From the NCBI GenBank assembly GCA_963842925.1, contig CAWJIL010000017.1:178833-242832 (forward strand): a stretch of 64,000 nucleotides of DNA, given 5' to 3'. The first letter of the stretch is position 1. Every line of letters begins with the position of its first letter. A program made the position numbers and the translations under genes. Below the pieces are notes generated by a model. That model saw only the letters and a list, made by a program, of their open reading frames with translations. It was not told the origin of the DNA and did not search any database. Of this stretch, positions 11,382 to 50,923 are shown in pieces. This DNA is from an uncultured delta proteobacterium. Its GTDB lineage: Bacteria; Desulfobacterota; Desulfobacteria; Desulfobacterales; B30-G6.

Positions 11382-12605
11382 ATGACACCTGACAACAACA
11401 AAACCTCGGTCCCGAGGAAAATCATCACGATACTTATACCTGTCCTTTTGATTGCCGCCGGTGGGGTTGCCTGGGCATATTTACAGTCTACAGCACCCAA
11501 GGTCAAACGCAAGCCGGCTGCCAGACCGGCAACCATGGTGGATGTTTTGACCGTAGAATTGAGCGACATGCAGCCCGTCATTACGGCCATGGGTACGGTG
11601 GTGCCTTCGCGGGAGATTGTTCTCAGATCCAGGGCTTCCGGTGAGATCCAACATCTGGCACCTGAGTTCATTCCCGGCGGACACATCGCCAGGGGCGAGG
11701 TAATTTTGCAGTTGGATGCCGAGGACTACCAGGTGGAGATCCAAAAAGCTGAAAGCGCTCTGGCAAAGGCCAGGGGGAACCTGGCTTTGGAAGCGGGCAA
11801 CCAGACCATTGCCCGCGAAGAGATACAAATGTTGTTGGAGGCATCCGGAGAAGCAATCCCGGTAACAGATCTTGCCATGCGCAAACCCCAGCTTATGCAG
11901 GCCCAGGCCGATATTGCCAGCGCCGAGGCAGACCTGCTTAAAGCCCGTCTCAATTTGAGTCGAACGGAAATTCGGGCACCTTTTAACTGTCTGGTGGTGA
12001 CACGCAATGTGGATCTGGGATCGCACGTGAATTCCCAGGACAGTCTGGCCACGCTGGTAAGTGTGGACGAGTACTGGGTGGAGGCGGCTGTTCCCATGGA
12101 TCGCCTATCTCTCCTGGATCTGACACGCAAAGGCGGATACCCGGCCCTTGTTCGTTCCCAGGCCGGTGGTGGCCAATGGCGTGGGCAGACCTTGAAAACA
12201 ACCGGTCGGCTCAATGAGGTCAGCCGCATGGCCACCCTGATGGTCCAGGTAAAAGATCCCCTTGGCATGCGATCCAAAAAACCCTCTCCCCAGATGATGT
12301 TGAACGACTATGTATCTGTGCAGATAACGGGACCGACCATTCCCTCGGTGGTGGGTCTAATCAGGGATGTCGTACGGGACAATCAAACCGTCTGGATAAA
12401 CAACCAGGGCACACTGGAAATCAGAAAGGTTGATATTCTCTGGAAGCAGGGAGACAAGGTGTTTGTGGGCAAAGGCTTGATGCCGGGTGAGCAGGTTGTT
12501 GTCTCGAATTTATCCACAGTTGTCGAGGGCATGCGTATTATTGCAAGTGAGAATGGTTCTCCTGCAAGATCTCAGGAAGGAATGGGGTCTGCCCATGAAA
12601 GCTGA
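11382..12605 (+). CDS. RND efflux periplasmic adaptor (membrane fusion protein)
   Basis: N-terminal membrane anchor, coiled-coil hairpin region, HlyD-like barrel. Starts 2 nt after the OMF stop. Confidence 0.9.
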   Translation: MTPDNNKTSVPRKIITILIPVLLIAAGGVAWAYLQSTAPKVKRKPAARPATMVDVLTVELSDMQPVITAMGTVVPSREIVLRSRASGEIQHLAPEFIPGGHIARGEVILQLDAEDYQVEIQKAESALAKARGNLALEAGNQTIAREEIQMLLEASGEAIPVTDLAMRKPQLMQAQADIASAEADLLKARLNLSRTEIRAPFNCLVVTRNVDLGSHVNSQDSLATLVSVDEYWVEAAVPMDRLSLLDLTRKGGYPALVRSQAGGGQWRGQTLKTTGRLNEVSRMATLMVQVKDPLGMRSKKPSPQMMLNDYVSVQITGPTIPSVVGLIRDVVRDNQTVWINNQGTLEIRKVDILWKQGDKVFVGKGLMPGEQVVVSNLSTVVEGMRIIASENGSPARSQEGMGSAHES

Positions 12606-15600
12606 AGAAAACACACACAGTCAACAAGCCAAGGGCCCCATTGCCTGGATGGCAGGCAACTCGGTTGCCTCCAACCTGGTCATGCTGGTGCTGCTGGTGG
12701 GAGGGCTCCTGGTGGGGTCTCAGATCAAGCAGGAAGTTTTCCCCGAATTTGCCTTGGACATGGTCAATATCTCGGTGGGGTATCCCGGTGCCAGTCCTGA
12801 AGAGGTGGAGAACGGGATTGTCTTGGCTGTGGAAGAGGCGGTTCAGGGCCTGGAAGGTGTCCAGGAAATTCGATCCACCGCCAGGGAGGGATCGGCCTCT
12901 GTGACCCTGGAAGCCATTGAAGGCACCGACATCACACGTCTGTGGCAGGAGGCCAAGAGCGAGGTCGATCGTGTCAATACATTCCCAGATGAAGCCAACG
13001 AGCCCCAGGTAAGCATCGCGGCCCGTCAGCGTGAGGTGTTGAATATCGGTCTCTACGGTCAGGCGGACGAAGCAACCCTCAGGGAAGCGGCCGAGCAGGT
13101 GCGGGATGAGTTGTTGTTGGACCCCAATATTACCCAGGTGTTTCTGGACGGCGTTCGGGATTTTGAAATCCAGATTGAAGTTTCCCAGCAAAACCTGCGG
13201 CGATACAATCTGACACTTCAGGAGGTGGCCAGTAGCGTGGCGCGGGCTTCGGTGGAACTCGGCGGCGGCAGTCTCAAAACCTCGGGTGGTGATATATTGG
13301 TTCGTGTCAAAGACCGGCGGGAGCGTGCCCGGGAATATGCCCGCCTGCCGGTGATTAGTCAGGCGGATGGCTCCCAGGTCCTGTTGGAAGATATTGCCAC
13401 GGTCAGGGAAGGCTTTGAAGACACCAATGCCTGGGCTTCATACAATGGTCTGCCGGCCGTGAGAATCGAAGTCTATCGAATTGGTGATCAGACACCCACA
13501 CAGGTGGCGGAAGCTGCCAGGGCGGTCCTGGAACAGGCTGTCGACAATCTGCCGGATGGACTTGATCTTGCCATACTCAATGACCGGTCGGTGGTATTTA
13601 ACGACCGGGCGGAGCTTCTGCTCAAGAATGCCTTTATCGGTCTGCTGCTGGTTTTTCTGTTTCTGGCTATCTTTCTGGATATTCGCCTGGCTTTCTGGGT
13701 GAGCCTGGGAATCCCCATATCCATCCTGGGGTCGTTTTTGTTCCTGGAGCCCCTATCCTTCTCTATCAACATGATCACCATGTTCGCATTTATCGTGACT
13801 CTGGGCATTGTGGTGGATGACGCCGTTGTGGTGGGGGAAAATGTTTACTACTACCGGCGCCAGGGAATGCCGTTATTAAAGGCGGCTATCACAGGGACGC
13901 GTGAAGTCGCCCTGCCGGTGGTGTTCAGTGTGCTGACAAATATTGTTGCTTTCCTGCCACTCTTTTTCGTACCCGGCATCATGGGCAAGGTTTTCAAGGC
14001 TATTCCCGTTGTGGTGATCTGTGTGTTCAGCGTGTCCCTTATCGAAAGCCTGTTTATTCTCCCGGCGCACCTGAGTCATGGTCGCCAACGCCAGGCTTTC
14101 TGGCCCCTCAACCACCTGGAGCGATGGCAACAAGGACTGAGCCAGGCCATAGAGCGATTTATCCAGCGGCGTTACGGTAACTTTCTGCAGGTGGTCTTGA
14201 GGCAACGCTATGCGGTGGTGGCCCTGGGTCTGGCCCTGTTGATGGCTACTGCCGGCTATATCAAATCGGGTCGCATGGGTATGGTGCTTTTCCCCAAAGT
14301 GGAATCGGACTATGCCTACTGTGAAGCGCTTCTGCCCTATGGTACGTCGCAGGAGCGCATGGCTGCCGTGGAGACGCGGCTGGTGGATGCTGCCGAACGC
14401 GTGGCAAGTGAAAATGGTCAGGCGCAGCTTTCAAAGGGTATTCTTGCACGCGTCAGTGAAAACAGGATTACCGTCCGGTTTTATTTGACAAATGCCAAGA
14501 CACGGCCCCTGGGCACATCCCAGGTGACGTCCTTGTGGCGGGATCAGGTGGGCGTTTTGTCAGGCCTGGAGTCGATCACCTTTGAATCAGATCGTGGAGG
14601 ACCCGGATCCGGAAAGGGTTTGACTGTCCAGTTGAGCCACCGCAACAAAGCTGTTCTGGATGAAGCGGGTATGGCCCTGGCCGTTAAATTGGCGGAGTTT
14701 CCCATCGTACATGACATCAATGACGGCTCGGCCAATGGCAAACGTCAGTTCGACATTCAAATCCGCCCGGCCGGTGTCCGCATGGGGCTGACATCCAAGG
14801 AAGTGGCCAGCCAGATTCGTTATGCCTTCCAGGGCGTGGAAGCAGTCAAGCAGCAGCGAGGTCGCAACGAGGTCACTGTTCGGGTGCGGCTGCCTGAAAC
14901 CGAAAGAATACAGGAGACCACCCTCGAAAACCTGGTGCTTCAAGCGCCCGGGGGCGAAATTCAACTTCGTGATGCCGTGGATATGATTTCAGGCCGCGCT
15001 TACACCGCCATCGAGCGAACCAACGGCAGGCGGGTCATTTCTGTTACGGCCAATGTCCGTCCGCAGTCGAAATCGGAAAACGTCAAGAATGCGTTGAATT
15101 CAGAGATTTTACCTGTCCTGGCAGACGTGTATACTGGCCTCGGCTACAGCTTTAAAGGCCGGCAGGCAGATATACAGGAGAGTGTGTCCGCGTTGATCAC
15201 GGGGCTTGGTTTTGCCCTGCTGGGTATTTACGCCATGCTGGCGATTCCCTTTAAGAGTTATTTTCAGCCCATGATCATCATGTTCTGCATTCCCTTTGGC
15301 ATGATCGGGGCTGTTGTGGGGCATCTGGTGATGGGTTATTCCCTTTCGGTCATGAGTCTGTTCGGTATCGTGGCCCTGTCGGGTGTCGTGGTAAACGATT
15401 CACTGATTCTGATTGATTTTGCCAACCGCAGACAACGCTCGGGCACAGACATCATGACGGCTATCCAGGAAGCCTCGATCCAGCGATTTCGTCCCATTCT
15501 GCTCACCACCCTGACAACCTTCGGCGGTCTGGCGCCCATGATCATGGAGACCTCGCGTCAGGCAAGGTTCATGATACCCATGGCCATCTCCCTGGGTTTT

Positions 15601-15738
15601 GGCATCCTCTTTGCCACATTTATCACCCTGATCCTGGTGCCCTCGCTTTACCTCATCCTGGAGGACATCAAGGGTATGTTTATTCGTGAAGATTCAGGGA
15701 TAGTGGGGGAGGAAATGGAAACAGGGTCCGGGGGGTAA
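12595..15738 (+). CDS. RND efflux transporter permease (AcrB/HAE family)
   Basis: ~1047 aa from the ATG at 12595 (MKAEENTH..), overlapping the MFP stop by 11 nt. 12-TM AcrB-like architecture with two large periplasmic loops. Confidence 0.9.
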   Translation: MKAEENTHSQQAKGPIAWMAGNSVASNLVMLVLLVGGLLVGSQIKQEVFPEFALDMVNISVGYPGASPEEVENGIVLAVEEAVQGLEGVQEIRSTAREGSASVTLEAIEGTDITRLWQEAKSEVDRVNTFPDEANEPQVSIAARQREVLNIGLYGQADEATLREAAEQVRDELLLDPNITQVFLDGVRDFEIQIEVSQQNLRRYNLTLQEVASSVARASVELGGGSLKTSGGDILVRVKDRRERAREYARLPVISQADGSQVLLEDIATVREGFEDTNAWASYNGLPAVRIEVYRIGDQTPTQVAEAARAVLEQAVDNLPDGLDLAILNDRSVVFNDRAELLLKNAFIGLLLVFLFLAIFLDIRLAFWVSLGIPISILGSFLFLEPLSFSINMITMFAFIVTLGIVVDDAVVVGENVYYYRRQGMPLLKAAITGTREVALPVVFSVLTNIVAFLPLFFVPGIMGKVFKAIPVVVICVFSVSLIESLFILPAHLSHGRQRQAFWPLNHLERWQQGLSQAIERFIQRRYGNFLQVVLRQRYAVVALGLALLMATAGYIKSGRMGMVLFPKVESDYAYCEALLPYGTSQERMAAVETRLVDAAERVASENGQAQLSKGILARVSENRITVRFYLTNAKTRPLGTSQVTSLWRDQVGVLSGLESITFESDRGGPGSGKGLTVQLSHRNKAVLDEAGMALAVKLAEFPIVHDINDGSANGKRQFDIQIRPAGVRMGLTSKEVASQIRYAFQGVEAVKQQRGRNEVTVRVRLPETERIQETTLENLVLQAPGGEIQLRDAVDMISGRAYTAIERTNGRRVISVTANVRPQSKSENVKNALNSEILPVLADVYTGLGYSFKGRQADIQESVSALITGLGFALLGIYAMLAIPFKSYFQPMIIMFCIPFGMIGAVVGHLVMGYSLSVMSLFGIVALSGVVVNDSLILIDFANRRQRSGTDIMTAIQEASIQRFRPILLTTLTTFGGLAPMIMETSRQARFMIPMAISLGFGILFATFITLILVPSLYLILEDIKGMFIREDSGIVGEEMETGSGG

Positions 15739-16224: not shown

Positions 16225-16509
16225 CTAATCGATATTAACTGTTTTGTCATCAATCATTTTCACCGTTGCCCGCTCCTTCCAGTTTTTCAGCGCATACCAG
16301 ATACCGATTTGCCTACCGTCAGGGGTGACTATCTCTGAGCCATTTTGATTCAGGGTAAAACCATTTCTCGAAGCGTTTAGAATATCAAACCATCTTTTCA
16401 GTAAAGTTTGTGTAAGATCAACGGGTTTCCAAAGTTTTGATTCGAGATGATACTCATTTCGAATCCCGATCACGGTTCTCGGTAATCCATTTTTATGTGC
16501 TTTCGACAA
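16225..16509 (-). CDS. Hypothetical protein
   Basis: 94-aa ORF overlapping the stop of the upstream GNAT gene by 17 nt (possible coupling). No recognisable motif. Confidence 0.45.
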   Translation of the reverse strand: MSKAHKNGLPRTVIGIRNEYHLESKLWKPVDLTQTLLKRWFDILNASRNGFTLNQNGSEIVTPDGRQIGIWYALKNWKERATVKMIDDKTVNID

Positions 16510-16999
16510 GACTGCGACTAAACTGCAATTGTGTCAGCTCGATCCCATGTCGAAAAATCTTTCTCTCAATATCCACTTGTTTAAACTTTACAGCTTTATA
16601 AAATTCAATTGCTCTTTGATTCTCCCGAACAACCCAGATTCGTACCTTTCTAAATTCCAAAGCCGCTAATTCGTCAAACGCTGATTTGATCAGTGTTTTT
16701 CCTACACCACGACCAGTGCTATGAGGGTCTATATATAAAGATGAAATTTCGGAAATCTTAGTGCTAACATCAATCTGGCTGAACGAGATAAAACCAATAA
16801 TCTGGTTTTCATGTTCAGCAACTAAATGTCTATGGCTTTCATTATTTAGATTTTTCTTCCAGATATTCTGAAAATGAATTTCTGATAAATTTTCTATGAT
16901 TTTATCTGGAATAAAGGGCTTATACGCCAGAATCCATGACCAACGATGAATTTGTGCAATTTGCGGAATATCATTTTTAGTAAATGGCCTTATTTTCAT
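16493..16999 (-). CDS. GNAT family N-acetyltransferase
   Basis: Acetyl-CoA binding motif HSTGRGVGKTL and a typical ~165-aa GNAT length. Confidence 0.85.
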   Translation of the reverse strand: MKIRPFTKNDIPQIAQIHRWSWILAYKPFIPDKIIENLSEIHFQNIWKKNLNNESHRHLVAEHENQIIGFISFSQIDVSTKISEISSLYIDPHSTGRGVGKTLIKSAFDELAALEFRKVRIWVVRENQRAIEFYKAVKFKQVDIERKIFRHGIELTQLQFSRSLVEST

Positions 17000-17003
17000 A
17001 AAT

Positions 17004-17029
17004 CTTTTCAGTTCGAGGCATATTACCGA
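17004..17029 (-). repeat. Fragment of the ~165-bp repeat (right-arm segment only)
   Basis: Minus-strand TCGGTAATATGCCTCGAACTGAAAAG aligns with the right-arm consensus TCGGTAATATTGCCGTTGAACTTGATAAC. It directly follows the 3' end of the ORF-less intron. Confidence 0.55.
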
Positions 17030-17526
17030 GTCGAGTAGCCCAGGGGAATTTCACCCCCAGGCCCTCTCAGAACGGTACGTGACGATCTCCCGTCATACCG
17101 CTCCTGCCAGCCATTCTCTTGAAACCTCACAGTCTCAAGTCTACGCAGAAAGAAATTCGGTTCCTCCCAGTTTCCTGGTTGACCTTCACTTACTACGAGC
17201 TGGCTCATCCCCTTCGCTCCGGTCCCATTACAGGACCTTCAACACTAATACGGGATGATCCGCCCCCGTGCTTCGCATCGGTACTCTAACGCTCATGGGT
17301 CCTCCACTTGCGTTTCTCCCTTAACATCGAAGCGACAGGTTCCCAAGTTCCACGCAAAAGCCTAACTCAGATTCATGCCACCTTTACGCCGGAGGCCACT
17401 TAGGCAATACACAGGCTCCCCCTAAGCTCATCCTGAACCCCATATAAAAGCTCAGTTTTGACCTCGTCCATTATCTTTCGACGCTTCATCGAATGGTTCG
17501 CTTACGCTCATCTCTCTGAGTCACAC
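17030..17526 (-). mobile_element. ORF-less group II intron-like element (type B, ~497 nt)
   Basis: Minus strand starts GUGUGAC (GUGYG consensus). Canonical domain V at 17070-17103: GAGCGGUAUGACGGGAGAUCGUCACGUACCGUUC, with AGC triad, GAGA loop and AC bulge. Domain VI has a bulged A and ends ..GGGCUACUCGAC at 17030. No ORF. Confidence 0.65.
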
Positions 17527-17553
17527 CTGCCACGATCCTATGCCGTGACTTTT

Positions 17554-19743
17554 GTCGAGTAGACCGGGGTCTTCCATGGCTATAGGTTGTAGTTTGTTTT
17601 CTCTGTTTGCCGCCTGGTTTCCCGGCGGTGCCACATCATCACAGCCTTACCTTCGGTTGTTCCCCGGTCCCTCCACAGAAACGGACAAGCGGATTTCCCA
17701 TACATCCGGCTCTTCGGTCACTCGTTCAGATAGCCTCTAAACTACGAAATGGATTCAGGTCTTTGCGAATACTCACCTTGGGCCACCCGACCCTCTTGAG
17801 TGCCTGTCGGTAGCCTGGCCATGTGTAAGAATTTCGTTGGCTCTTACGATTGAGCCACTTAAACAGTATTCCCTTCACATGATAGAGATAGGTTGCACAC
17901 CTATCCGAGTTATCCGTTATGGCGTAATAGCTCAGATGCCCCACCACGCGCACCTTGGCCTGGCGAAGCATCTCACCTTTCCTCAGAACAGCCCTACTTT
18001 TGCGCGCCCATTCCGTGAACTTACGTAGGCTTTGTGCAAGTTTCTTGCGACTGGTCCGTCGCTTCACCTTGAAGTGCCCATCCCGAGTTTTCCCACAATA
18101 GTGTGTAAACCCCAGGAAAGTGAACTCCTTCGGCTTTTGCCCTCGCCTTTGTGCATCCCTACGCGCAAAACGCCCAAATTCAATGCAGTGTGTCTTCTCT
18201 TCGGCTACTTCCAGGCTAAAAGCTTCAAGCCTGTCTTTTAACCGATTCTCGAAGTGCCTTGCATCTGCTTTGTACCGGAAGCAGGCCAGGAAATCATCGG
18301 CAAAACGGAAATAATAAGCCTCTCCCCGGCACTGCCTCCTGACCCTATGGCTGAACCACAGATCCAGCACATAGTGCAGGTAAATGTTCGACAGCAGTGG
18401 TGACAGGATTGAGCCCTGGGGAGTACCCCTTTCAATGGCTCTAACCAGCCCGTCCTCCATTATTCCGCCCTTTAGCATACGACTGATCAACCTTAGTATG
18501 CGAGGGTCACCAATGCGGTGTTCCAGAAACTTCATCATCCATCTGTGAGAAACTTCATCGAAAAATGCTCTGATGTCTGACTCCACCAGATAGCTAACTC
18601 GCTTCTGCTGGATGGTTCGTCCCAGCCTGCCCAAACACAAATGCTGGCTCCGCTCGGGTCGATACCCATAGCTGCTGTCTTCGAAGATCTCCTCGTAGAC
18701 CCGTTCCAGAGTCTGCTTCACCGCCAGTTCAACTATCTTATCTTCAAAACAGCTGATTCCTAACGGCCGCCCCTTTTCACTGCCCGACTTCGGTATATAG
18801 CTCCGGCGGCTGGGCTGTGGGCGGTATCCCATACGCTTCAGCCGGTCAGTCAAGCTTTCAAGGTTCTCTTCGAGGTTTTCCCCATACTGTTCTTTGGTTA
18901 CGCCATCCACACCGACGGCTTTGTCGTCGTCCAGTGCTTCGTAGCAGTCCCGCAGGTTGTCCAAATCTGTCACATGATGATACAGCGATGTGAACACCAG
19001 ATCCGGCTCCTTGCGAGCCCTCTCTCCTATCCGTGTCAGGTCAGTGCTCATCAATTCTCACTCTTTGCATAGTGTCGATGTTTCCCCTTTCACGGGCAAT
19101 TGACCGTGGAGACCTTCGCTCAGCGGGGATTAGCCGCTTCATCGCTAAACCATTGCGGTTATACTGGTCTCCATCCCTCGCATCGGCGTCTTTTGGTCGC
19201 CTCCTTTTACGTTGGTCGACCATACTCGGTTACTATCCCAACGACCTGGGATGCTTTCACCAAGAACCTTTGGGTGCCTTTTCCGATGCTTGCCTGGTTA
19301 CTCCATCGTCGTTGTCATGCTCGATGCTGTCTGAGACCCCGGGGTGTCGGTTGGTACTCGTCCATAACGCACCTTCCGTTTCGCCTGCGCCCTTTAGGAA
19401 AAGATAGGCACGATCCCAAAATCAGTGTTTCTCGGGGCTATGGGTCAGATTCAGGGCTCACACCCTTCACCTCGCTAGACTCGCGGATTTCCTTATACAG
19501 CTGGGAAATACACTACCGGGCGGCTGACTAGACCTTACCCGGGAGGGCTTATGCTTTCGCATTCCCTCGCGACGCTGAACCAGCGCCAGGTTCGAACCCT
19601 AAACGCTCACAACCCTGGCTCTTTACCAACGCAGCTTTAGGTGGTTTGAAGCCTGCTCCTGCAAGCCGGCTCCGAGGGGCCAAACAACCCTCATCTTTTG
19701 TGCAGTTACGCACACTTTATAGTAAAGTGCGCTCGTGGCGCAC
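17554..19743 (-). mobile_element. Group II intron (type A) encoding an RT/maturase
   Basis: 5' end GUGCGCC at 19743. RT ORF in the domain IV position. Domain V-like segment at 17678-17712, 13 nt after the RT stop. 3' end ..GGUCUACUCGAC at 17554, the same terminal 9-mer as type B. Confidence 0.8.
17726..19054 (-). CDS. Group II intron reverse transcriptase/maturase (no endonuclease domain)
   Basis: RT motifs RPLGISCFEDKIV, GTPQGSILSPLLSNIYL and FRFADDFLACF (YADD variant). C-terminal X/maturase region. 442 aa. Confidence 0.9.
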   Translation of the reverse strand: MMSTDLTRIGERARKEPDLVFTSLYHHVTDLDNLRDCYEALDDDKAVGVDGVTKEQYGENLEENLESLTDRLKRMGYRPQPSRRSYIPKSGSEKGRPLGISCFEDKIVELAVKQTLERVYEEIFEDSSYGYRPERSQHLCLGRLGRTIQQKRVSYLVESDIRAFFDEVSHRWMMKFLEHRIGDPRILRLISRMLKGGIMEDGLVRAIERGTPQGSILSPLLSNIYLHYVLDLWFSHRVRRQCRGEAYYFRFADDFLACFRYKADARHFENRLKDRLEAFSLEVAEEKTHCIEFGRFARRDAQRRGQKPKEFTFLGFTHYCGKTRDGHFKVKRRTSRKKLAQSLRKFTEWARKSRAVLRKGEMLRQAKVRVVGHLSYYAITDNSDRCATYLYHVKGILFKWLNRKSQRNSYTWPGYRQALKRVGWPKVSIRKDLNPFRSLEAI

Positions 19744-19912
19744 TATATGGAGACAAGTCCAATTATCAAGTTTGATGAAATTATTGCCGATACCATATGG
19801 TTATGAGCAGCGTACCATGGAGGGACCTATGAATACAAGATTTGGTCGGTTGTGATTATGATCGCACACCGGTAAAATTTTAGGGGTCTGATATCTACCG
19901 TTTTGTTGGTGG
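19744..19912 (-). repeat. ~165-bp repeat, full copy R1 (gene-direction orientation on minus strand)
   Basis: Aligns end to end with the copies at 29581, 34262, 40641 and 49638. Its right end (..GGACTTGTCTCCATATA) abuts the intron 5' end at 19743. Confidence 0.85.
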
Positions 19913-19999
19913 TATCGGCAATTTTGATATTTAAGGATGGCCGCTTTCATTAACTTTACAAGTTCTCATAAGCACGATTTTGAAACCGTGCTAAACGGG

Positions 20000-21324: not shown

Positions 21325-22191
21325 CTATTTGGTACAATCATCAGGACAGTTCAACTCTGTTTCACCACCCCAAGGTTCGCAATAGGCGTCGCCGCAAACG
21401 GTTGGTTGATCGACACATATGACGAAAAATTCTACTTGTAACTGATGGACAGTGCTCTCGCAATTAAACCGAAATGCCCATGATCGGTCCAGAACACCAT
21501 CGTCCCTGCCCGGCCATGGGTATGATCCTACCTCTATGCATGGATCGTTGTCTTCCCAAGATACTGTTTTCCAACCACCGCTAATCGCCAGATCGGCACC
21601 GTAACACGATACAATCTCTTCATAATTGGCAACTCCGGGAGCAATAGCTCTCCATAAATACTTGAAGTAGTATGCGCCAACTGCGTCCTGGCCAGGTGGT
21701 CCTTCCGGCCCCTCTGGCCCCGGCTCACCCTGCGGGCCTTGTTCACCTTGAGGGCCCGTGTCACCGGTATCACCTTTTAGACCAGGCTCACCAGGATCCC
21801 CCTTGTCACCTTTAGGACCGGCGTCACCCTGTAGTCCTTGAAGACCTTGTGGCCCCGTGTCCCCGGTATTGCCCTTATCACCTTGTGGCCCTTGCTCGCC
21901 TTGCGGCCCCGGCTCACCCTGAGGTCCTTGGCCACCCTGAGGTCCTACTGGACCTACTGGGCCAACTGGTCCTTCCGGACCAGGTAATAGCTGAATATTA
22001 TTAATAGCATCCCATACAGCGGGCAAACCACCCTGCATATTTGCAATCGCCGCTGCGTTCTTATCTGCCTTTGATTTGGTGCTTGAAACATCTGTCTGTA
22101 GCTCCTGAATGTCAGTATCATCAACAGCCCATACATTGCCGCATAAAAGGATAGACAATACCACAGCAATTAAAATGAATCCTATCTTCAT
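21325..22191 (-). CDS. Secreted collagen-like triple-helix repeat protein with Cys-rich C-terminal domain
   Basis: ATG at 22191 preceded by GGAGGAGGAG. Signal peptide [22 protein letters not shown]. About 33 uninterrupted G-X-Y triplets ([16 protein letters not shown]...GPPGQ), then a ~125-aa domain with 8 Cys. Confidence 0.85.
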
Positions 22192-22869
22192 ACTCCTCCT
22201 CCTTTTCTGTTGAATGAATAACAAAATAGGTAAAGCATGCGTTGGGAGCTATCATAACTGCATGAAATATCAGCATCAGATCAGCAGGTGTCGGCCAGGT
22301 TCAGGTGGTACAGAATAGCTTTATCTTTAAATAGCACGCAAGAATCATGCGGAAATGTCGGATGCAAAAAAAAGTTATTATTATAGATAGTTAGACTTTA
22401 TAGTTGACTTGTAAGAAGGTAAAATGAGAAGTCAATGTTATAATTATTGGGTAGATAAGGTTAGAATCTCTGTGCTTTATCGCCAGAACCTTTGATGTAT
22501 GATTAGAGTTTTATCCATTGTCCGAGATTTGGCAATGATAATGTTAAAAAGATTTTGACTATTTTACAACGGGATTTTCAAGATAGGGTATGCAGGAAGG
22601 ATAATTGATAAAGCTCATATGTACGAAGCCGTGTAGCAACGGTATTGCACGATAGATCTATATGGGTATTGTATTTCAATCTGGTATGATGGAACCTGGA
22701 CAAATTGCCAGTTCGGGATATTTCAAAGGCATGATCTGTGCTGAGCCAGAACGCACATTGTGCCATATTAACCTCAAAGCCTTCTACTATGCCGCCATCT
22801 ATGGATTCTGTACTGAACCAGGGCGTACCTCTCCTATTGTTTTGTAGCTTCAGATATCGATTTGTCCGG

Positions 22870-24084
22870 TCAACCCAATAAACAAGCAAGTTGGGTCTGT
22901 GGTCCTGCCCGGCCTTTTGGGATGTCGGCAAAAAACTGCATTTTCCCTTCGGTACAGCAAGGACAAACAGTGATATCTGTCCCCGTCAGCTGAAGCATTA
23001 TTTCCTCAAGGGTAGCTGCTTCATTCTCATCGAGAGAAGACACTCCCATCAATTGCCTGATGGTGTTTAAGTTATCATTTCGATTGCGGTTGGCTAAAAA
23101 GCCGTAATGCCGGATTCTGACAAAGCCGTTTGGGAGACTGTGTAAAAGGAACCTTCGGATAAACTCCATCGCTGTGATGGTGATTATTTCCGTTATTTTT
23201 TTCTTTCGGTTCTTGGCGGTAAAGGAGACCATACCGTTTTCAAGTCTTTTAATGCGGCTGTTGGCAATGGCCACCCGATGGGTATAACGTGCCAGGTATT
23301 CAAGCACATGTTCCGGGCGTTTGACTGGTTCACGCACGCTGACCACCCAGTTTTTGGCATACAGCTTGTTTTTGAAGTCGCCAAAGGATCTGCCGGCAAA
23401 TTTGAGCGAGCCGGTTTTACGGGCATGCTTAATACGTTCCATAAACTTGCCGCGAAAGACCTGTGATAATGCCTCTTCGTTGAAGAGATAATCGTTTTTT
23501 ACCGGAAGCCACTCCTTTTTGTTCCCGAGCAGAACACCACCGGCTACCAAACAATGCAAATGAAAATGAGCTTTGAGCTTTTGATCCCAGGTGTGTAAAA
23601 CAGCCAAAAATCCTAATTTGCCGTTGAGTTCGTTGTTGCCAAAGGTCAGAAGGGTTCTGGATGCAGCAGCAAAAAGGATGTTGAACATCACCTTTTTGTT
23701 GTTTAAGATGACGGTGTTCAACTCATGCGGCACGGTAAAAACCACATGGAAGTAACTGACCGGCAAGATCTCGTTTTTTCGTTTTTCCAACCATCTTTCG
23801 CGTGGCATATGCTGGCATTTGGGGCAGTGGCGATTACGGCAGGAATGATACGTGATGCGCACAGCTCCACAATTGTCACAGCGTTCGATATGGCCACCCA
23901 GACGGGCGGTGCGGCAGTTCAAAAGGTCGGTTGCGATTTTACGATGTTCCGGCCATAAAGGATATTCGGCTTTATAGTCATTAAGATGATGACGCAGAAT
24001 GTCGGCGACCTCCGGGGTTTTATGATCAGGTTTTATGATTTGGGTCATCGTTTCTGTCCTCCTTTCCTGCATGTTTTTGGTCAA
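22870..24084 (-). CDS. IS91 family transposase (Zn-binding N-terminal domain + Y2 HUH domain)
   Basis: CRTARLGGHIERCDNCG..HSCRNRHCPKCQ zinc-binding domain. HFHLHCLV (HUH-like). C-terminal RYTHRVAIANSR and CPCC. Confidence 0.85.
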   Translation of the reverse strand: MTKNMQERRTETMTQIIKPDHKTPEVADILRHHLNDYKAEYPLWPEHRKIATDLLNCRTARLGGHIERCDNCGAVRITYHSCRNRHCPKCQHMPRERWLEKRKNEILPVSYFHVVFTVPHELNTVILNNKKVMFNILFAAASRTLLTFGNNELNGKLGFLAVLHTWDQKLKAHFHLHCLVAGGVLLGNKKEWLPVKNDYLFNEEALSQVFRGKFMERIKHARKTGSLKFAGRSFGDFKNKLYAKNWVVSVREPVKRPEHVLEYLARYTHRVAIANSRIKRLENGMVSFTAKNRKKKITEIITITAMEFIRRFLLHSLPNGFVRIRHYGFLANRNRNDNLNTIRQLMGVSSLDENEAATLEEIMLQLTGTDITVCPCCTEGKMQFFADIPKGRAGPQTQLACLLG

Positions 24085-24916
24085 TGAGATCCAAAGGACT
24101 TGGGATCGTTGACAGAGTTTGGCGGCTCACATGCAGATAAATCATGGTGGTGGTCAGTCTCGTATGGCCCATTAAAACCTGTATTTTCCGGATGTCGTAT
24201 CCAGCCTCCAGGAGGTGTGTGGCGAAGCTGTGACGCAATGTGTGGACACCCGAGCCCCTTTTTACTCCTGCCTTCATTCTGGCCTCTTCGTATACCGAAC
24301 GGATAGACTCGTATGACAAGGGTTTATCTTTCTTTTTTCCGAATGAAGATGGGAACAGGTAGGTGTCGGGACGATATTTACGATAATAGATTCTCAGTTC
24401 GCCAAGCAGTCTTTTTGAGAGCAGTGTATAGCGATCCTTTTTGCCTTTACCATCTTCGACTTTGATCAGCATGGCCTTGCTGTCGATGTTTTCTGATTTG
24501 AGTTTAAGGGTTTCGCTGGCCCTGAGTCCTGCCGAGTAAGTGGTCATCAGAATCATTTTGTGTTTGAGGTTGTTGGTAGCGTGGATGATATCCCAGATAT
24601 CTTCCATGGGCAGGACTTGTGGGAGTTTTCTCGGCTTTCTCGTGAGGCTGTAGGTTATGGATATCTCCTTTTCAGCAACATTTTTGTAAAAGAATCGAAG
24701 TCCGCTAAGAACTGCGCAGCAGCTGTTGGGAGCATTACCCTTGTCAAGCTTGAGATAGAGAAGGTAATCCTCGATTTTTTCTTTGGTGAGGTTATCCGGT
24801 GCCTGGTTATAGAACTTGGCAATCCCTTTGACAGCGGCGAGATAGGACCTCTTTGTGTGCTTGGAAAGATTTTTAAGTTCCATAATCCTGATCATTTTTT
24901 GACGTAGTTCTGCCAT
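24026..24916 (-). CDS. Tyrosine site-specific recombinase (phage integrase family)
   Basis: Catalytic-type residues in LRASE, HTLRHSFATHLL and GHTRLTTTMIYLH. Overlaps the transposase start by 59 nt. Confidence 0.85.
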   Translation of the reverse strand: MAELRQKMIRIMELKNLSKHTKRSYLAAVKGIAKFYNQAPDNLTKEKIEDYLLYLKLDKGNAPNSCCAVLSGLRFFYKNVAEKEISITYSLTRKPRKLPQVLPMEDIWDIIHATNNLKHKMILMTTYSAGLRASETLKLKSENIDSKAMLIKVEDGKGKKDRYTLLSKRLLGELRIYYRKYRPDTYLFPSSFGKKKDKPLSYESIRSVYEEARMKAGVKRGSGVHTLRHSFATHLLEAGYDIRKIQVLMGHTRLTTTMIYLHVSRQTLSTIPSPLDLIDQKHAGKEDRNDDPNHKT

Positions 24917-25057
24917 GTCATACCTCCTTTGTTGTGGGTTATTAACGTCTCGGAGGTATTTTATACGATCAGGAGAAAAGAAACGATCGATAACGTAGGT
25001 AGGGTTTATTGATTAAAACCTTGGGGTGGGAAAGCTACCGCGGAGCGGTTTCGTACG

Positions 25058-25100
25058 TATGGAGATAATCACTGTCTTGATCGAATTACAGATACCATAA
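25058..25100 (-). repeat. ~165-bp repeat, right-arm-only fragment R3
   Basis: TATGGAGATAATCACTGTCTTGATCGAATTACAGATACCATAA aligns with the start (plus-strand reading) of R7 and R1. Lies ~140 nt upstream of the recombinase start. Confidence 0.5.
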
Positions 25101-26822: not shown

Positions 26823-27320
26823 ATACCGGGTAGCCGGGGGCCATTGCTGGCCCCAAGCCCCCTAAGGTAGGGTCGAGAACTGGCGCGGTGCCTTATGGGT
26901 CCGTTTCCAGTTCCCGCCTCGTCAAACGCAGCATGCGGATTTCCCGCACTACGCTTACTCTGTTAACTTAATCTGAGGAGTTATGTGGCCTATCAAACTG
27001 GCAGCGCTTTCGACCCTATTCGAGCCTACTCCACCTGTTCCAACCGAATCAGTCTTCACCTTCAGGTATATCTTCCTTCTCAGGTCTTGCAGAATGATGG
27101 ACGATTTTATCATTTCGTCCCCGCCTCCCAGTGTTGTCGGAAGATTGTTAACAGCAGGGTCGCACAGGCGAACTTCAGCGCATTGTCAGGAAGGCTTCAT
27201 ACCCGTCAAGGATGCACCTTGAGCGCATGCTTCCATAGGATTGCAGCGACGGGACACTGAGTTCAGACAAAGGCGAACTGCCTTCGCTGAACAGTCAAAA
27301 TACGCGACTTCGTGTCGCAA
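26823..27320 (-). mobile_element. ORF-less group II intron-like element (type C, ~498 nt)
   Basis: Minus strand begins UUGCGACACGAAGUCGCG (terminal hairpin as in type A). Domain V at 26924-26956: AAGCGUAGUGCGGGAAAUCCGCAUGCUGCGUUU, with AGC triad and a 2-nt bulge. Domain VI GGGGGCUUGGGGCC..GGCCCCCGGCUACCCGGUAU has a bulged A. The ORFs the track places here are not coding. Ends uncertain by ~10 nt. Confidence 0.65.
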
Positions 27321-27328
27321 CTGTGATG

Positions 27329-27420
27329 TATGGAGACAATGTCAGGTTTCAGGCCCATCAAAAAACCTGCGATACCATGAAAATCAACGGTCTTTCCCGC
27401 CACGATCACCATTACCGATA
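27329..27420 (-). repeat. ~165-bp repeat, diverged partial copy R5 (right part)
   Basis: Right end ..GACATTGTCTCCATA plus 8 nt (CATCACAG) abuts the 5' end of the ORF-less intron, the same junction as at 49805/49814. Confidence 0.55.
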
Positions 27421-32203: not shown

Positions 32204-32426
32204 AATTTCCTCCTTTGCTCATATTCTTACCTTTTTGCTACAGTGGAGTCATCTAACAGTGAATATACGGATCCGTATAAGACGCTGTATGCCTGATTTA
32301 TTATAAAAACACAAGATCAGGAAATTATACAAACCATAAAATGTTGTTATTTCAAATCCGGTGTAAAAAAATGTGATATATTCTAAAAAGTTAGCAGGAA
32401 ACCAAATATCCGAGGAATTCAGATAA

Positions 32427-32491
32427 ATGGAGACAAGTGCTACTATCTGAAAATCTGAAAAAATATCAGGGGCCTGATATCTACCGTTTTG
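32427..32491 (-). repeat. ~165-bp repeat, internally deleted mini copy R8
   Basis: The right arm (ATGGAGACAAGTGCTACTATCTGAAAATCTGAAAAAATATCAG) is joined directly to the left arm (GGGCCTGATATCTACCGTTTTG). Its left end abuts an intron 3' end at 32492. Confidence 0.65.
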
Positions 32492-32595
32492 GTCGAGTAG
32501 CCCGGGGGAATTTAACCCCCAGGGCCTCACAGGTAGGTACGTGACAGTCTCCCGTCATACCGCTCCTGCCAGCCTTCCTCTTGAGCCCTCATGTG
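32492..32595 (-). mobile_element. 5'-truncated fragment of the type B group II intron (domains V-VI)
   Basis: Aligns with 17030-17135, including CUACUCGAC and domain V GAGCGGUAUGACGGGAGACUGUCACGUACCUAC. Confidence 0.75.
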
Positions 32596-33577: not shown

Positions 33578-33832
33578 TCGTACGTGACAGTCTCCAGTCA
33601 TACGGCCCCTGACAGCCATAAGCAGGCAACCTCGCAGTCCCAAGCTGACACATAAAGAAATTCGGTTCCTTTCAGTTTCCTGATTGATCATCATTTGCTG
33701 TGATCTGGCTCATCCCCTTCGCTCCAACCCCATTACAGAGCCTTCAACACGACGACTCGATGATCCACCCCCGTGTCCCGCATTGATACCCTCACGCTTG
33801 TGGGGTCTGAACTTGCGTTTCTCATTCCCTGG
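33578..33832 (-). mobile_element. 5'-truncated, diverged fragment of the type B group II intron
   Basis: Aligns with 17078-17340 (..GGCTCATCCCCTTCGCTCC..CATTACAG..CCTTCAACAC..TTGCGTTTCTC). The domain VI region is degenerate. Confidence 0.7.
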
Positions 33833-36992: not shown

Positions 36993-37233
36993 CAATGCCC
37001 TGACTAAGAAACAGAACACCGACGTTGTTGAAACCACCATCGATATCATAAAAAACACCCTTGCATCTGGTGAAGATGTTCTGATCTGCGGTTTCGGTAA
37101 ATTTAGTGTTAAAGATAAAGCTGAACGCAAAGGCAGGAATCCCGCTACTGGTGAAGATAAGATGATTTCAGCAAGACGCGTGGTTACGTTTAAGTGTTCT
37201 GGCAAACTTAGGGGTAAGATCAATGGAACGTGA
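36949..37233 (+). CDS. HU/IHF family DNA-binding protein (IHF-like)
   Basis: 94 aa. ..GFGKFSVKDKAERKGRNPATGEDKMISARRVVTFKCSGKL.. is the canonical DNA-binding arm. Confidence 0.9.
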   Translation: MTLTKAQLIERIRSNNALTKKQNTDVVETTIDIIKNTLASGEDVLICGFGKFSVKDKAERKGRNPATGEDKMISARRVVTFKCSGKLRGKINGT

Positions 37234-47300: not shown

Positions 47301-47764
47301 ATGATGATGCTGTGAATTATTATAAAAAAGTGATTTCAGTATTGGAAAACGCTAATTATATGCCTTCCATAATTAAATATTTTCAGTCATGTATGATGAG
47401 AGCTAAAGTGTTAAGGCATGATCAGGATGTCGTATTAAGTGAATTAGTTGCATGTTATCAAAACTATAAATTAACGCTGTGTAAAGGCTGGACAGCCAGA
47501 AATATAGGAGATGTCATGCTGAATATAGACGATGATCACATCTCGGATGCAGCAGTCTGGTTTCAGAAGGCCATCGAAGTAGACACGAGAAACGGATTTA
47601 GGTTTCAGTTGGCGCAGGATCATGCTCTATATGCCGACTGGTTCAAGAGGAAGGGAGATATTAAGGGAGCCAAGGAGCAACTCACCAAGGCCGTCGACAT
47701 CTTCAGGGAATGCGGTGCCGATAGATGGGTGGAAAAGTATGAGAAACAATTGGCTGAACTCTAA
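44399..47764 (+). pseudogene. Double zinc-ribbon + class III adenylate/guanylate cyclase + AAA ATPase + TPR protein, interrupted by two frameshifts
   Basis: Three track ORFs (44384.., 44521.., 45011..) together read as one protein: CPKCQ..CGECG x2, then KQVTVMFCDMMGF..GDGIMALFG..RIGIHTG, then LGNDLRVEFKAVGDTVNLAARM, then GIGKSR (P-loop) and TPRs. Frame changes lie near 44565-44572 and 45013-45017. Confidence 0.8.
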
Positions 47765-49442: not shown

Positions 49443-49637
49443 AAGCCGCAGCCATTTTCGACAGATATGTTCGATAAACATTCGCCGAAAACAAGGACCC
49501 GAATCGGCATGTATCTGCCATAAATATCCGTAAAAAATTAATCCTCTACAAAAGACAGATAGTTACACTTATCTTTGGGCAATCATCTGTGGAAGAATCG
49601 TCAAAAATAATCGAAATAAATCGTCCACCAGCAGTGG

Positions 49638-49805
49638 ATATCCAACAAAAACAAGGTTATCAGACACCTAAAATTCTACCGGTGTGCGAAAATTATCGCA
49701 ACAGACGAAATCTTGTATTCATAATCCTTGCCGTGATACCTTGGTGATGACCAGATGGTATCGGTAATATTGCCGTTGAACTTGATAACTGGACTTATCT
49801 CCATA
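49638..49805 (+). repeat. ~165-bp repeat, full copy R13
   Basis: Roughly 85% identical by eye to R11 over the whole length. Its right end ..GGACTTATCTCCATA is followed, after CATCACCA, by the intron 5' end. Confidence 0.85.
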
Positions 49806-49813
49806 CATCACCA

Positions 49814-50045
49814 TTGCGACACGAAGTCGCGTATTTTGACTGTTCAGCGGAGGTATTTAGCCTTTGTCTGAACCCAGTGTCCCGTCGCTGCGATCCTATG
49901 GAAGCATGCGCCCAAGGTGCATCCTTGACGGGTATGAAGCCTTCCTGACAATGCGCCGAAGTTCACTTGTGTGAACGGTGTGGAAGCCGTGAGGTGGAAG
50001 CGCTCCTGGAAGCTCCATCCGGGTGAGGGGTTAGGATAGGATACT
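49814..50045 (+). mobile_element. 3'-truncated copy of the type C ORF-less group II intron (5' ~230 nt only)
   Basis: Near-identical by eye to the first ~190 nt of 27320..26823 (minus). It then diverges, and no domain V or VI is present. Confidence 0.7.
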
Positions 50046-50798: not shown

Positions 50799-50923
50799 TA
50801 AATTCAAATAAATTTAAAAATCCATTTTCAACATCTTGTGGTTCTGCCAATTATGGCGAATTGCTGATACTGTTGTAGATCAAAGGTTTTTTCAGGATTG
50901 AAATATCTGTACTATCTCCAACA

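Follow-up and report, generated by a model that had tools for sequence, protein, structure and literature searches.

Group II introns and a twintron at recurrent insertion points of a repeat between accessory genes in an uncultured Desulfobacterota bacterium

Group II introns adjoin a repeat between accessory genes

Why do several group II introns of one genomic region border the same repeat, and does this reflect homing or another process? We addressed this question in a stretch of 64,000 nucleotides from an uncultured delta proteobacterium, referred to as the window. Its accessory genes form two arrays of opposite orientation, in which small, unrelated genes (GNAT, phosphoesterases, DUFs) are separated by one conserved repeat. 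The repeat is ~160-190 nt long, carries a direct TCTCCA motif at both ends and terminates some tens of bases ahead of the start codon that follows. Nine strong copies and several partial ones were identified in the window by nhmmer, and a metagenome scan revealed the repeat in 83 of 120 loci, often in arrays. The units that border introns are the following:

19744-19929, minus strand: R1, a cassette-junction repeat unit of ~170-190 nt (nhmmer E = 6.5e-57)
49621-49813, plus strand: repeat unit R13 with the right end ..TATCTCCATACATCACCA (nhmmer E = 2.6e-56)
27321-27378, minus strand: R5, a diverged right arm of the repeat ending ..TGTCTCCATACATCACAG (nhmmer E = 0.007)
32420-32491, minus strand: an internally deleted mini-repeat (left end of R8) made of the left 25 nt and the right 45 nt (sequence, nhmmer)

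A preliminary description had reported four intron/repeat junctions, all of which are present in the sequence (the slash marks the boundary): GTCTCCATATA/GTGCGCC at 19744/19743, CTCCATACATCACCA/TTGCGAC at 49813/49814, CTCCATACATCACAG/TTGCGAC at 27321/27320 and GGGCTACTCGAC/CAAAACGGTAGATATCAG at 32492/32491. A chance origin is argued against by the pairing statistics, the divergence of the flanks and the recurrence in metagenomes given below. As described, every intron piece of the window lies on the strand of its repeat and genes, and the introns are located in 5' leaders. Their position "exactly" at the repeat ends has to be relaxed, since conserved sequence (..ATCNN..TGATATTTGG) extends beyond the insertion points in many repeat copies. 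The hairpin suspected near the site found no support, with z-scores of ~0 and no helix conserved in 38 copies. The proposal of a CTCCA(W)-type homing site stands insofar as the repeat is a genuine target and the EBS2/EBS1 pairing of intron A spans CTCCA; instead of one site, we find three fixed insertion points, i.e., CTCCAWAWA/ for intron A, CTCCATNNATCNNNN/ for intron C and CTCCAA/CAAAACGG for A-type introns at the left end.

The same intron lineages occupy the same three positions in unrelated metagenome contigs. In L114 and L188, intron C is placed behind the right end with an identical offset, and intron A follows a variant right end in L203/L102. A point against homing is the low occupancy in the metagenomes, where ~3-4 out of 58 right ends and 2 out of 120 left ends hold an intron. 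Site-specific homing of group II introns, in sense orientation, into three fixed points of the repeat is in our view very probably the explanation of this pattern.

The element upstream of the GNAT gene is a twintron

The element at 19743-17030 (minus strand) had been read as a type A fragment next to a full type B intron ending at 17030. This typing is incorrect: over its 2714 nt, the element forms a twintron with an RT-encoding intron B inside an ORF-less intron A, and the supposed type A 5' end and type B 3' end are the two halves of one outer intron. Its parts and its 3' exon are:

19598-19743, minus strand: 5' segment of outer ORF-less intron A, 146 nt, with 5' GTGCGCC and the start of domain 1 (D1), ending GTTTAGG
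17554-19597, minus strand: inner RT-encoding intron B, 5' end GTTCGAACC, 3' end GGTCTACTCGAC (placed by comparison with L002); RF02005 match
17726-19051, minus strand: RT/maturase ORF of B, 441 aa (Pfam RVT_1, 8e-32)
17030-17553, minus strand: 3' segment of outer intron A, with D5-D6 at 17105-17030 (RF00029, 57.1 bits) and the 3' end CTACTCGAC
16493-17029, minus strand: 3' exon, i.e., the native 30-nt leader TCGGTAATATGCCTCGAACTGAAAAGATTT (17029-17000) and the GNAT acetyltransferase gene (16999-16493) (Pfam; intron-free orthologues)

The two segments of A (19743-19598 and 17553-17030) amount to 670 nt. Removal of 19597-17554 gives GAGCGTTTAGG-AAAAGTCACGG..CGTGGCAGG, and the rejoined junction GTTTAGG/AAAAGTCACGG..CGTGGCAGG agrees with the RF01999 consensus and with the uninterrupted copy in L203. 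In L203/L102, the A sequence runs continuously through the insertion point of B (RF01999, 72.5 bits). As read from the sequence, the element holds a complete inner intron, and its removal restores the structure of the outer one. The 5' end of B is set by its relatives: the 146 nt of A are common only to L001, and ~25 other relatives begin at the position of 19597 (GTTYGAACC) with unrelated 5' flanks. A delimitation of 19743-17556 as a single intron sharing a 29-nt 3' flank with L001 was dropped, as the relatives place the 5' end of the RT intron at 19597. L001 contains the same twintron at 96% identity, including the stub of A after B, preceded by ATTATCTCAATTTA/. An HMM search revealed no repeat near this copy, which suggests that the intron follows its IBS rather than being part of a co-duplicated unit. 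The repeat HMM likewise had no match in 81 genome loci carrying relatives of the RT.

The RT of B has 7981 homologs, the best of which (96% identity) is named a group II intron RT from Thermodesulfobacteriota/Desulfobacterales. Among solved structures, LtrA is its nearest match, and it shares 35-45% identity with a class E IEP; the classes of the B and C RTs are placed by similarity. No endonuclease domain was detected in the ORF. The EBS1 loop of B, CCTAAA at 19398-19393, faces the IBS1 GTTTAGG in intron A (19604-19598). In 14 loci, whose 5' ends align at GTTYGAACC, this loop covaries with the 5' exon over eight distinct targets, e.g. GATAAC with GTTATC, CGATGT with ACATCG, CAAAAT with ATTTTG, GAGCTT with AAGCTC, TATACG with CGTATA and CCTAAA with TTTAGG. 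Other EBS candidates chosen by eye (the GTATAAGG and UGUGAG loops) were rejected, the covarying loop being CCTAAA. The locus thereby adds a bacterial twintron in which retargeting of the inner intron is documented by covariation across eight targets. Alignment with L002 shows a C·U mismatch next to the catalytic triad in D5 of B and an enlarged D6, and D5-D6 of B yielded no Rfam match. Judging from these features, the splicing competence of B is uncertain.

Intron A pairs with the end of the repeat

Intron A carries an EBS2, AGATAA (AGAUAA; 17476-17471), and an EBS1, TATATGG (UAUAUGG; 17446-17440), which together pair with an unbroken run of 13 bases at the repeat end, UUGUCU-CCAUAUA/. These are the last 13 nt of R1 (TTGTCT-CCATATA, 19756-19744) and constitute IBS2-IBS1. 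EBS1 forms seven of seven Watson-Crick pairs that end exactly at the junction, and EBS2 forms six of six pairs (one G·U) directly upstream. The joint arrangement has a p of ~0.0023 against random 13-mers from the window, for an assignment that was made by eye, with each EBS in an 11-nt hairpin loop, in a single complete A copy and without covariation support; the MFE fold supports the EBS1 hairpin and extends its stem. EBS/IBS pairing with the flanks, which had been named as a check on homing, can therefore be drawn for A and B, and C shows no convincing EBS1-IBS1. Further hallmarks of group II introns are, in the outer intron, a D5 followed by a D6 whose bulged A is close to the 3' end (RF00029, 57.1 bits), and the RT/maturase encoded by B; the A and C copies of the window are ORF-less or deletion derivatives. 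Self-splicing and retromobility of the window introns are predicted from these features.

The twintron sits 30 nt upstream of the GNAT start codon. The intron-free GNAT cassettes of L118 and L086 (95-98% aa identity) read CTCCATGTA-TCGGTAATGTGCC..ATG without a break (also given as CTCCATGTA-TCGGTAATGTGCCTCCAACTGAAAAGATTTATG). As the leader is contiguous with the repeat end in these empty sites, the stretch 17029-17004, which had been taken for a right-arm segment of the repeat and does resemble one, is the GNAT gene's own leader.

We explain these observations by the following series of events. The ORF-less A (670 nt) would have homed after ..TTGTCTCCATATA/TCGG through EBS2 and EBS1 pairing, and B would then have homed into domain 1 of A at GUUUAGG/AAAAG through its own EBS1 (CCUAAA), creating the twintron. 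Type C would have inserted six bases further downstream in other repeat copies, and the left end (CTCCAA/CAAAACGG) would also have been used by A-type introns. For their RTs, the ORF-less A and C copies presumably rely on B-like or other introns. Sequential splicing, B then A, would be needed to restore the leader ..CUCCAUAUA-UCGGUAAUAUG, with CTCCATATA-TCGGTAATATG as the expected ligated R1-GNAT product. Being present in many copies, free of coding sequence and transcribed together with the gene that follows, the repeat may offer many harmless landing sites, and the introns could be removed from the 5' leaders. The locus would thus be a clean natural case of group II intron persistence in bacteria, by specialization on a target where insertion is harmless and sites are plentiful. 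With the EBS/IBS pairs and the empty sites, splicing and homing can be tested directly. Most of the window copies are probably dead fragments (C at 49814, the remnant at 27320-26825 and the pieces at 33.8 and 32.5 kb).

Type C introns and the independence of the junctions

49814-50045, plus strand: 5' fragment of a type C intron, ~230 nt, with 5' TTGCGAC (RF02012, 80.5 bits; UHB.I2-like IIB1/CL1)
26825-27320, minus strand: decayed remnant of a second nested arrangement (sequence comparison), composed of the next three parts
27320-27161, minus strand: 5' 160 nt of the outer type C intron (sequence comparison)
27160-26867, minus strand: 3' part of a class-C-like inner intron with its ORF deleted, ending CCCTAC (similarity to L010)
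26866-26825, minus strand: D6 of the outer type C intron, ending GGCTACCCGGT (matches L114 2073-2120)

Type C introns (TTGCGAC...CCCGGT) are inserted directly after the repeat end in 4/4 copies, behind CTCCATNNATCNNNN and six bases downstream of the A site. The fragment at 49814-50045 is 95% identical to L114 943-1174 with the same 3' boundary, and no D5/D6 follows it; D5/D6 reach 46.8 bits in L114, and in the window only D6 remains. The inner part of the remnant is 78% identical to the L010 copies, whose RT is closest to the GsI-IIC RT. An empty analogous site in L182 reads ATCACAG-GTTCAATGATATTTGG and matches both flanks of the window C remnant. Orthologs of the 362-aa protein encoded downstream led to no further empty site, their contigs being too short or not collinear.

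No EBS1-IBS1 pairing fitted all four type C copies, in which the last 4-6 exon bases all differ (ACCA, ACAG, GGTA, TATA); the only pairing found was a 10-nt complementarity to exon positions -14..-5 in L114. Among other candidates, a CUGUG/CACAG pairing fits one copy but not L114, and the covariation of a GGAGGUA loop is explained by an internal hairpin. A class-C-style stem-loop ending at the C site (GGTGATG...CATCACC) occurs in the two occupied window copies and is neither energetically significant nor conserved.

The type C copies bear on whether the association might be a by-product of duplication, in which blocks of repeat and intron were copied together by cassette shuffling or gene conversion and the junctions are not independent. 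In line with this, a stretch of 14 nt (TCTCCATACATCAC) precedes the intron in both C copies of the window. The C fragment at 49814 also breaks off at the internal position where that of L114 stops, an odd coincidence if the two had decayed independently. Furthermore, L180 is merely an ortholog of window junction 4, and the L001 twintron is a close copy of that of the window down to the A stub. However, the C introns are 87-97% identical and their 5' flanks only 56-77% (56-76% beyond 20 nt); the two window copies share 93% over the first 100 nt and 56-63% in their 5' flanks. That the introns are far more alike than their flanks argues for separate insertions. Moreover, no two C copies agree in their last 4-6 exon bases, the same cassette is also found without an intron, L001 lacks a recognizable repeat upstream and the EBS loops of A match the target. 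We thus consider duplication a very unlikely origin of the association and retain homing.

Insertions at the left end of the repeat

32492-32591, minus strand: 3' terminal 100 nt (D5-D6) of an A-type intron, 87% identical to 17129-17030 (RF00029, 29 bits)
33580-33823, minus strand: internal fragment of an A-type intron, truncated on both sides, homologous to 17318-17075 (78% identity)

The piece at 32591-32492 adjoins a left end of the repeat from which CTCCAA is removed. It had been described as a type B 3' end; its identity to 17129-17030 assigns it to the outer type, A. For the left-end site CTCCAA/CAAAACGG, both halves of the junction are seen, in different copies. The 3' end of A adjoins CAAAACGG in L184 and also in L180, the ortholog of the window copy, and the 5' junction is present as TTTCTCCAA/GTGCGCC in L195 and as a remnant, CCTCCAA/GTGCGCC.., in L101. 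As 49/120 left ends read CTCCAA before CAAAACG, the two halves reconstruct an intact target.

Junction 4 and the fragment boundaries could instead be scars of deletion or recombination that happen to end at the repeat. Both pieces (33823-33580 and 32591-32492) are truncated, with 990 nt of unrelated DNA between them and a 38-nt duplicated stretch, and the repeat adjoining junction 4 is itself internally deleted, the orthologous contig L180 having a full repeat in place of the mini-repeat at 32420-32491. Domain 1 is kept in none of the left-end copies. A scar would, however, have to coincide with the exact intron 3' end (CTACTCGAC / CTACCCGAC) meeting CAAAACGGTAGATATCAG in L184, i.e., in a different intron copy and repeat subfamily, with the complementary 5' junctions in L195 and L101 and with the frequency of CTCCAA at intact left ends. 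Hence, we judge scars to be an improbable explanation, and homing remains the preferred one for this site as well.

Relation of the repeat to attC sites

If the repeat were the attC of a chromosomal integron or a CALIN, the introns would be the known attC-associated group II introns, either IIC-attC or the IIB type of Sonbol & Siam 2021, and nothing new. The organization of the arrays, with small unrelated genes separated by one repeat, is what such a system would show. In metagenome contig L207, seven repeats in 9.3 kb start 10-76 nt past stop codons, the GNAT cassette has different neighbors in different contigs, and some repeat copies have inverted TCCAAC...GTTGGA ends. Type C further resembles UHB.I2, a sense intron right after a predicted attC, in its UUGCG..GU ends, a similar D5/D6 and an IEP N-terminus of 54% identity. 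Yet the paired inverted RYYYAAC and GTTRRRY cores and the imperfect hairpin of 57-141 nt that define attC are lacking: the complementarity of R'' and R' is not conserved, GTTRRRY is replaced by AACTGGAC in most copies, with GTTGGA in a minority, RNAalifold found no conserved helix in 38 full copies, and compensatory changes were absent, so that attC-like folding was rejected. The repeat measures ~160-190 nt, its conservation continues 25-50 nt past the would-be R', GNAT as the last minus-strand array gene has a repeat upstream and none downstream, and the introns are sense-oriented, unlike IIC-attC introns. No intI was found among the window ORFs scanned, which covered the inter-array ORFs (35.4-40.6 kb) in part; the sole tyrosine recombinase (24916-24026) belongs, together with an IS91-type Y2 transposase, to an IS91-like element. 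Integrase-less attC clusters (CALINs) are known, and the absence of intI is thus not decisive. Taken together, we regard an attC identity of the repeat as unlikely.

A distinct cassette system is a tentative alternative. The repeat might, with low confidence, be the junction element of a non-integron system, sequence-conserved, without an attC hairpin, bounded by direct TCTCCA cores and with promoter-like and operator-like blocks. Within the same reading, it is doubtful, though conceivable, that the TCTCCA cores are a shared hot spot for at least three group II intron lineages and an IS91-like element, and that the system is widespread in sediment Desulfobacterota. If true, a new kind of gene-cassette platform would have its points of recombination or its boundaries marked by the introns, which could help to define them. 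As a possible cassette-junction element, the repeat deserves separate study.

Comparison with known introns

The preliminary description had likened the logic to that of class C introns at attC sites, with a different repeat as target. The novelty is smaller than assumed there, since a sense IIB1/CL1 intron after an attC has been published: UHB.I2, from a cassette array of a soda-lake metagenome, lies directly after an attC (Sonbol & Siam 2021, PMC7923331). Type C likewise has 5'-UUGCG...GU-3' ends, cassette orientation and a position directly after the inter-cassette repeat; the starts (TTGCGACATGATG in UHB.I2, TTGCGACACGAAG in type C) and the D5/D6 ends are similar, and over 97 aa its IEP remnant in L114 shares 54% identity with the CL1 IEP of UHB.I2. 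In contrast, UHB.I2 targets a ~70-nt attC predicted by IntegronFinder (PMC7923331). The repeat targeted by type C measures 170-190 nt and does not pass as an attC by simple criteria, and the intron sits ~24 nt past the attC-like GTTGGAC motif. Also unlike UHB.I2, the type C copies are ORF-less or fragmentary, one with a nested second intron. To this single published report of sense IIB introns by cassette-array repeats, our data add a case from another phylum, with a different type of repeat and several lineages at neighboring positions.

IIC-attC introns, e.g. S.ma.I2, insert into the attC bottom strand, antisense to the cassettes, and recognize a stem-loop and a short IBS1 (Leon & Roy 2010, PMC3001079). 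They share with the present introns the specialization of a lineage on a repeated cassette-array junction element that leaves genes undisrupted. However, the window introns are all in sense, A uses a IIA/IIB-style 13-bp EBS2+EBS1 pairing, and the B and C RTs are not closest to class C; the only class-C-like intron is the decayed inner one at 27160-26867. Bacterial group II twintrons are known from Trichodesmium (PMC4649490) and Thermosynechococcus (PMC2882425), where one group II intron has likewise homed into another and sequential splicing would be required. The window twintron differs from these in that its outer intron is ORF-less and harbors B within domain 1, and in that the element occupies a 5' leader repeat and not a coding gene, with splicing being predicted. 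RmInt1 of Sinorhizobium meliloti, which has no endonuclease domain, homes into the multi-copy ISRm2011-2 through EBS1/EBS2 pairing. Its target is an IS transposase gene, whereas the present introns home into a non-coding repeat at the junctions of cassettes.

Group II introns border a cassette-junction repeat

The window carries two arrays of unrelated accessory genes, whose products include a GNAT acetyltransferase, metallophosphoesterases, an aldehyde dehydrogenase, an M20 peptidase, HD and GGDEF proteins and small ORFs:

~35.4 to 16.5 kb, minus strand, first accessory-gene array
~40.6 to 53.5 kb, plus strand, second accessory-gene array

Between the array genes, and in the same orientation, sits a repeat of ~170-190 nt. 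Employing a profile built from six copies, we found nine strong and several partial copies in the window. The repeat starts with ..TCTCCAACAAAACGGTAGATATCAG and ends with ..TTGATAACTGGACTTNTCTCCATNNATC. It holds a hairpin (CCGTGATACC..GGTATCGG) and a TGTGA-N6-TCACA palindrome overlapping a TATAAT-like hexamer, which a simple promoter scan picked up in three copies.

The preliminary description had placed group II introns directly at repeat ends, and all four of its junctions are present in the sequence (19744/19743, 49813/49814, 27321/27320 and 32492/32491). Rfam detects group II intron parts at each of these places:

19692-17030, RF01999, RF02005 and RF00029
49873-50030 and 27261-27118, RF02012
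26958-26867 and 32563-32492, weaker matches to RF00029

Introns occupy three of the ~9 right ends in the window; among the metagenome loci listed, about 3-4 of 58 right ends and 2 of 120 left ends are occupied. The only clear departure from sense orientation is a miniature A-type intron derivative of ~150 nt (locus L148, 5970-6110; also L100), in which 5' GTGCGCCACGAGG.. is joined to D5/D6 ..GGTCTACCCGAC. It adjoins a repeat left end in opposite orientation (..TTTTGTTGGAGATA/GTGCGCC; slashes mark junctions).

A twintron next to repeat copy R1

Using the intron-encoded reverse transcriptase (RT) as a query on a genome collection yielded 79 loci. About 25 relatives (RT identity 65-87%) resemble the window at the nucleotide level only from 19597 onwards, where every one of them reads GTTYGAACCTGGC, preceded by unrelated DNA. 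Only one copy, 96% identical and from another MAG (L001), shares the upstream 146 nt (19743-19598) and also the 29 nt past the first CTACTCGAC. In two metagenome contigs (L203 and L102), the type A sequence runs unbroken across the point 19597 (GAGCGTTTAG-AAAAAGTCACGG) and matches RF01999 in full; the window junction without 19597-17554 fits the RF01999 consensus. Together, these observations argue for two introns, one nested in the other; by these alignments, the element is a twintron:

19743-19598 and 17553-17030, minus strand, outer intron A, 670 nt, ORF-less, starts with GUGCGCC, good D5/D6 at 17105-17030
19597-17554, minus strand, inner intron B, starts with GUUCGAACC, encodes a 441-aa RT, ends with CUACUCGAC

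The earlier typing of A and B is therefore revised, A being the outer intron and B the one nested within it. A loop of B (19398-19393, CCTAAA) can pair with GTTTAGG, the stretch of A immediately 5' of B. This loop covaries with the 5' exon across 14 loci with eight different 5' exons, which supports a homing of B into A. If both introns were spliced out, the leader would be restored as CTCCATATA-TCGGTAATATG.

In a related MAG (L010, 4815-8343), a tandem of class-C-like introns (5' GTGTGTCCAGC, 3' CTCGACCCTAC), one copy full and two with the ORF deleted, immediately follows the D5 hairpin in a B-type intron. The RT of this family is closest to the GsI-IIC RT, and nesting of introns seems frequent in this lineage.

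Outer intron A pairs with the repeat end

Two loops of A pair with the 13 bases 5' of its junction. The first, CGUC[GAAAGAUAAUG]GACG, holds AGAUAA (17476-17471), which pairs with UUGUCU at exon positions -13 to -8 (6 bp, one G.U). The second, CUGAGC[UUUUAUAUGGG]GUUCAG, holds UAUAUGG (17446-17440), which pairs with CCAUAUA at -7 to -1 through seven Watson-Crick bp, the last of them at the splice site. Judging from 300,000 random 13-mers from the window, the chance of the EBS1 match in register is 2.9%, and that of both matches 0.23%. We infer from this predicted pairing that outer intron A recognises the repeat end. Other repeat ends in the window, compared by eye, are 1-3 positions off its target.

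Close GNAT homologs (82-98% identity) are found on short metagenome contigs. In L118, a full repeat is followed by ..GGACATCTCTCCATGTA-TCGGTAATGTGCCTCCAACTGAAAAGATTT-ATG without the intron, and L086 shows the same intron-free arrangement behind a diverged repeat. These empty sites fix both boundaries of outer intron A. They also identify the 3' flank (17029-17000), which had been taken for a right-arm segment of the repeat, as the GNAT gene's own leader. The upstream neighbours of the GNAT cassette differ between the window, L086 and L082.

Type C introns and the left end of the repeat

Type C introns always start 15 nt past the first C of CTCCAT, as seen in all four copies (two in the window, L114 and L188). 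The window copies are 92-93% identical over 160-175 nt, and their flanks are unrelated beyond ~20 nt. L114 carries a longer intron (943-2120), in which D5/D6 ends with GGCUACCCGGU and the RT is truncated. Each of the four copies has different final 4-6 exon bases before C. The proposed EBS/IBS pairing with the flanks can be drawn for A, with 13 bp to the repeat end; for type C, no EBS1-IBS1 pairing valid across the four copies compared was found. The L114 intron shows a 10-nt complementarity to exon -14 to -5.

The C 5' fragments at 49814-50045 and L114 943-1174, in different contexts, stop at the same internal base (..TTAGGATAGGATACT). Such a shared 3' end is not expected from random decay, nor from abortive reverse transcription, which shortens copies at the 5' end.

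The second C copy in the window is a remnant of three parts:

within 27320-26825, minus strand, first 160 nt of C
within 27320-26825, minus strand, 3' part of another intron, class-C-like, ORF deleted
within 27320-26825, minus strand, D6 of C

Its class-C-like part is 78% identical to the L010 copies nested after D5 of the B-type intron. This make-up points to a second, now decayed set of nested introns.

At the left end, where the insertion point reads CTCCAA/CAAAACGG, an A-type intron is represented in the window by its 3' end (32591-32492). A different A-type 3' end (CUACCCGAC) precedes CAAAACGGTAGATATCAG of another repeat subfamily in L184, L195 has the complementary junction TTTCTCCAA/GTGCGCC, and L101 keeps a comparable short remnant. 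Among the loci listed, CTCCAA precedes CAAAACG in 49 of 120 left ends. Taken together, these data suggest that the left end is a third insertion point. Hence, the idea of a CTCCA(W) motif as the homing site stands in so far as the introns lie at fixed points of the repeat, but these points are not one site.

An orthologous locus in a related population (L180) has a full repeat where the window has a deleted mini-repeat. This mini-repeat (32420-32491) is an internal deletion of the repeat kept at L180 1167-1351, and through the deletion a terminator-like hairpin has arisen, GATATCAGGCCCCTGATAT with a T run behind it.

An IS91-like element (22870-25098, minus strand), comprising a tyrosine recombinase (24916-24026) and a Y2/IS91 transposase (24084-22870), is inserted at the right-end motif of the repeat (..TATCTCCATAC/GTACGAAACCGCTCCGCGGTAGC). 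In L163 (~675-2943), the same element end (GTACGAAACCGCTTCGCGGTAGC) follows ..TTCTCAATAT of the repeat, and the proteins are 72% and 69% identical. The two insertions indicate a second kind of mobile element at the same hot spot.

Nature and spread of the repeat

A metagenome pattern scan returned at least 120 loci (L092-L211). The repeat is present in 83 of the 120 listed, often in several copies per contig (128 HMM matches). The family is widespread in sediment-type metagenomes and forms arrays, such as seven copies in 9.3 kb that are spaced by one or two small ORFs (L207, 4114-9341). Repeats of these arrays begin 10-76 nt past the preceding stop codon.

Judged from its sequence, the repeat is not a canonical attC. 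Terminal inverted TCCAAC/GTTGGA occurs only in a minority of copies, and no compensatory changes were seen. No consensus helix was found among 38 full copies, and conservation extends past the would-be core site. On the coding strand, G.T pairs are many and A.C pairs few in the internal hairpin, a pattern that weakly favours an RNA leader over bottom-strand folding. In a variant subfamily (L203, L118), the left part is followed by an intrinsic terminator, a TTGACA-type promoter and the right part. The repeat is here regarded as a cassette-junction element with putative terminator, promoter and leader functions.

Two repeats are split into left part and right arm, one by HD and GGDEF genes (50912-51031 with 53466-53524, plus strand), the other by a 127-aa ORF (25624-25495 with 25098-25055, minus strand). 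In both, the hairpin region is duplicated at either side, as if the cargo lay inside the repeat and not between repeats.

Relation to known intron-repeat systems

Class C group II introns specialise on terminators, IIC-attC introns on attC and RmInt1 on an IS. Group II introns on repeated non-coding targets are already known, and the intron-repeat association observed here is real. Sense-oriented IIB introns beside attC sites of cassette arrays have been described in one report, in which a predicted attC site is directly followed by UHB.I2 in the sense orientation (PMC7923331). Type C and UHB.I2 have the odd UUGCG..GU ends in common, resemble each other in D5/D6 and are 54% identical at the IEP N-terminus, features that place the former in the UHB.I2 lineage. 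The two systems thus have the same logic and one intron lineage in common. However, the target here is a different repeat, several intron lineages occupy adjacent fixed positions, a clear 13-bp EBS2/EBS1 match is found, and introns are nested, in one twintron and a second, decayed one.

Genomic setting

By the names of the closest relatives of its intron RT, the window appears to come from a Desulfobacterales/Thermodesulfobacteriota chromosome. The segment 9800-16000, which contains a 1083-aa ORF (12487-15738), has a G+C content of 53-55% compared to ~40-46% elsewhere and could be of foreign origin, adjoining the minus-strand array where it ends. A collagen triple-helix repeat protein (GXY repeats; 21325-22224, minus strand) lies among the cassettes, with 18-nt periodic DNA repeats at 21831-21963. 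A direct repeat pair of 111 nt (37117-37227 and 60786-60896, 70% identical) is unrelated to the cassette repeat. The ORF after the plus-strand C fragment (50304-50798) is a TPR-like piece with 69% DNA identity to 47609-47752, the C-terminal end of a 917-aa AAA/TPR/cyclase-domain ORF (45011-47764), and is probably a partial duplicate.
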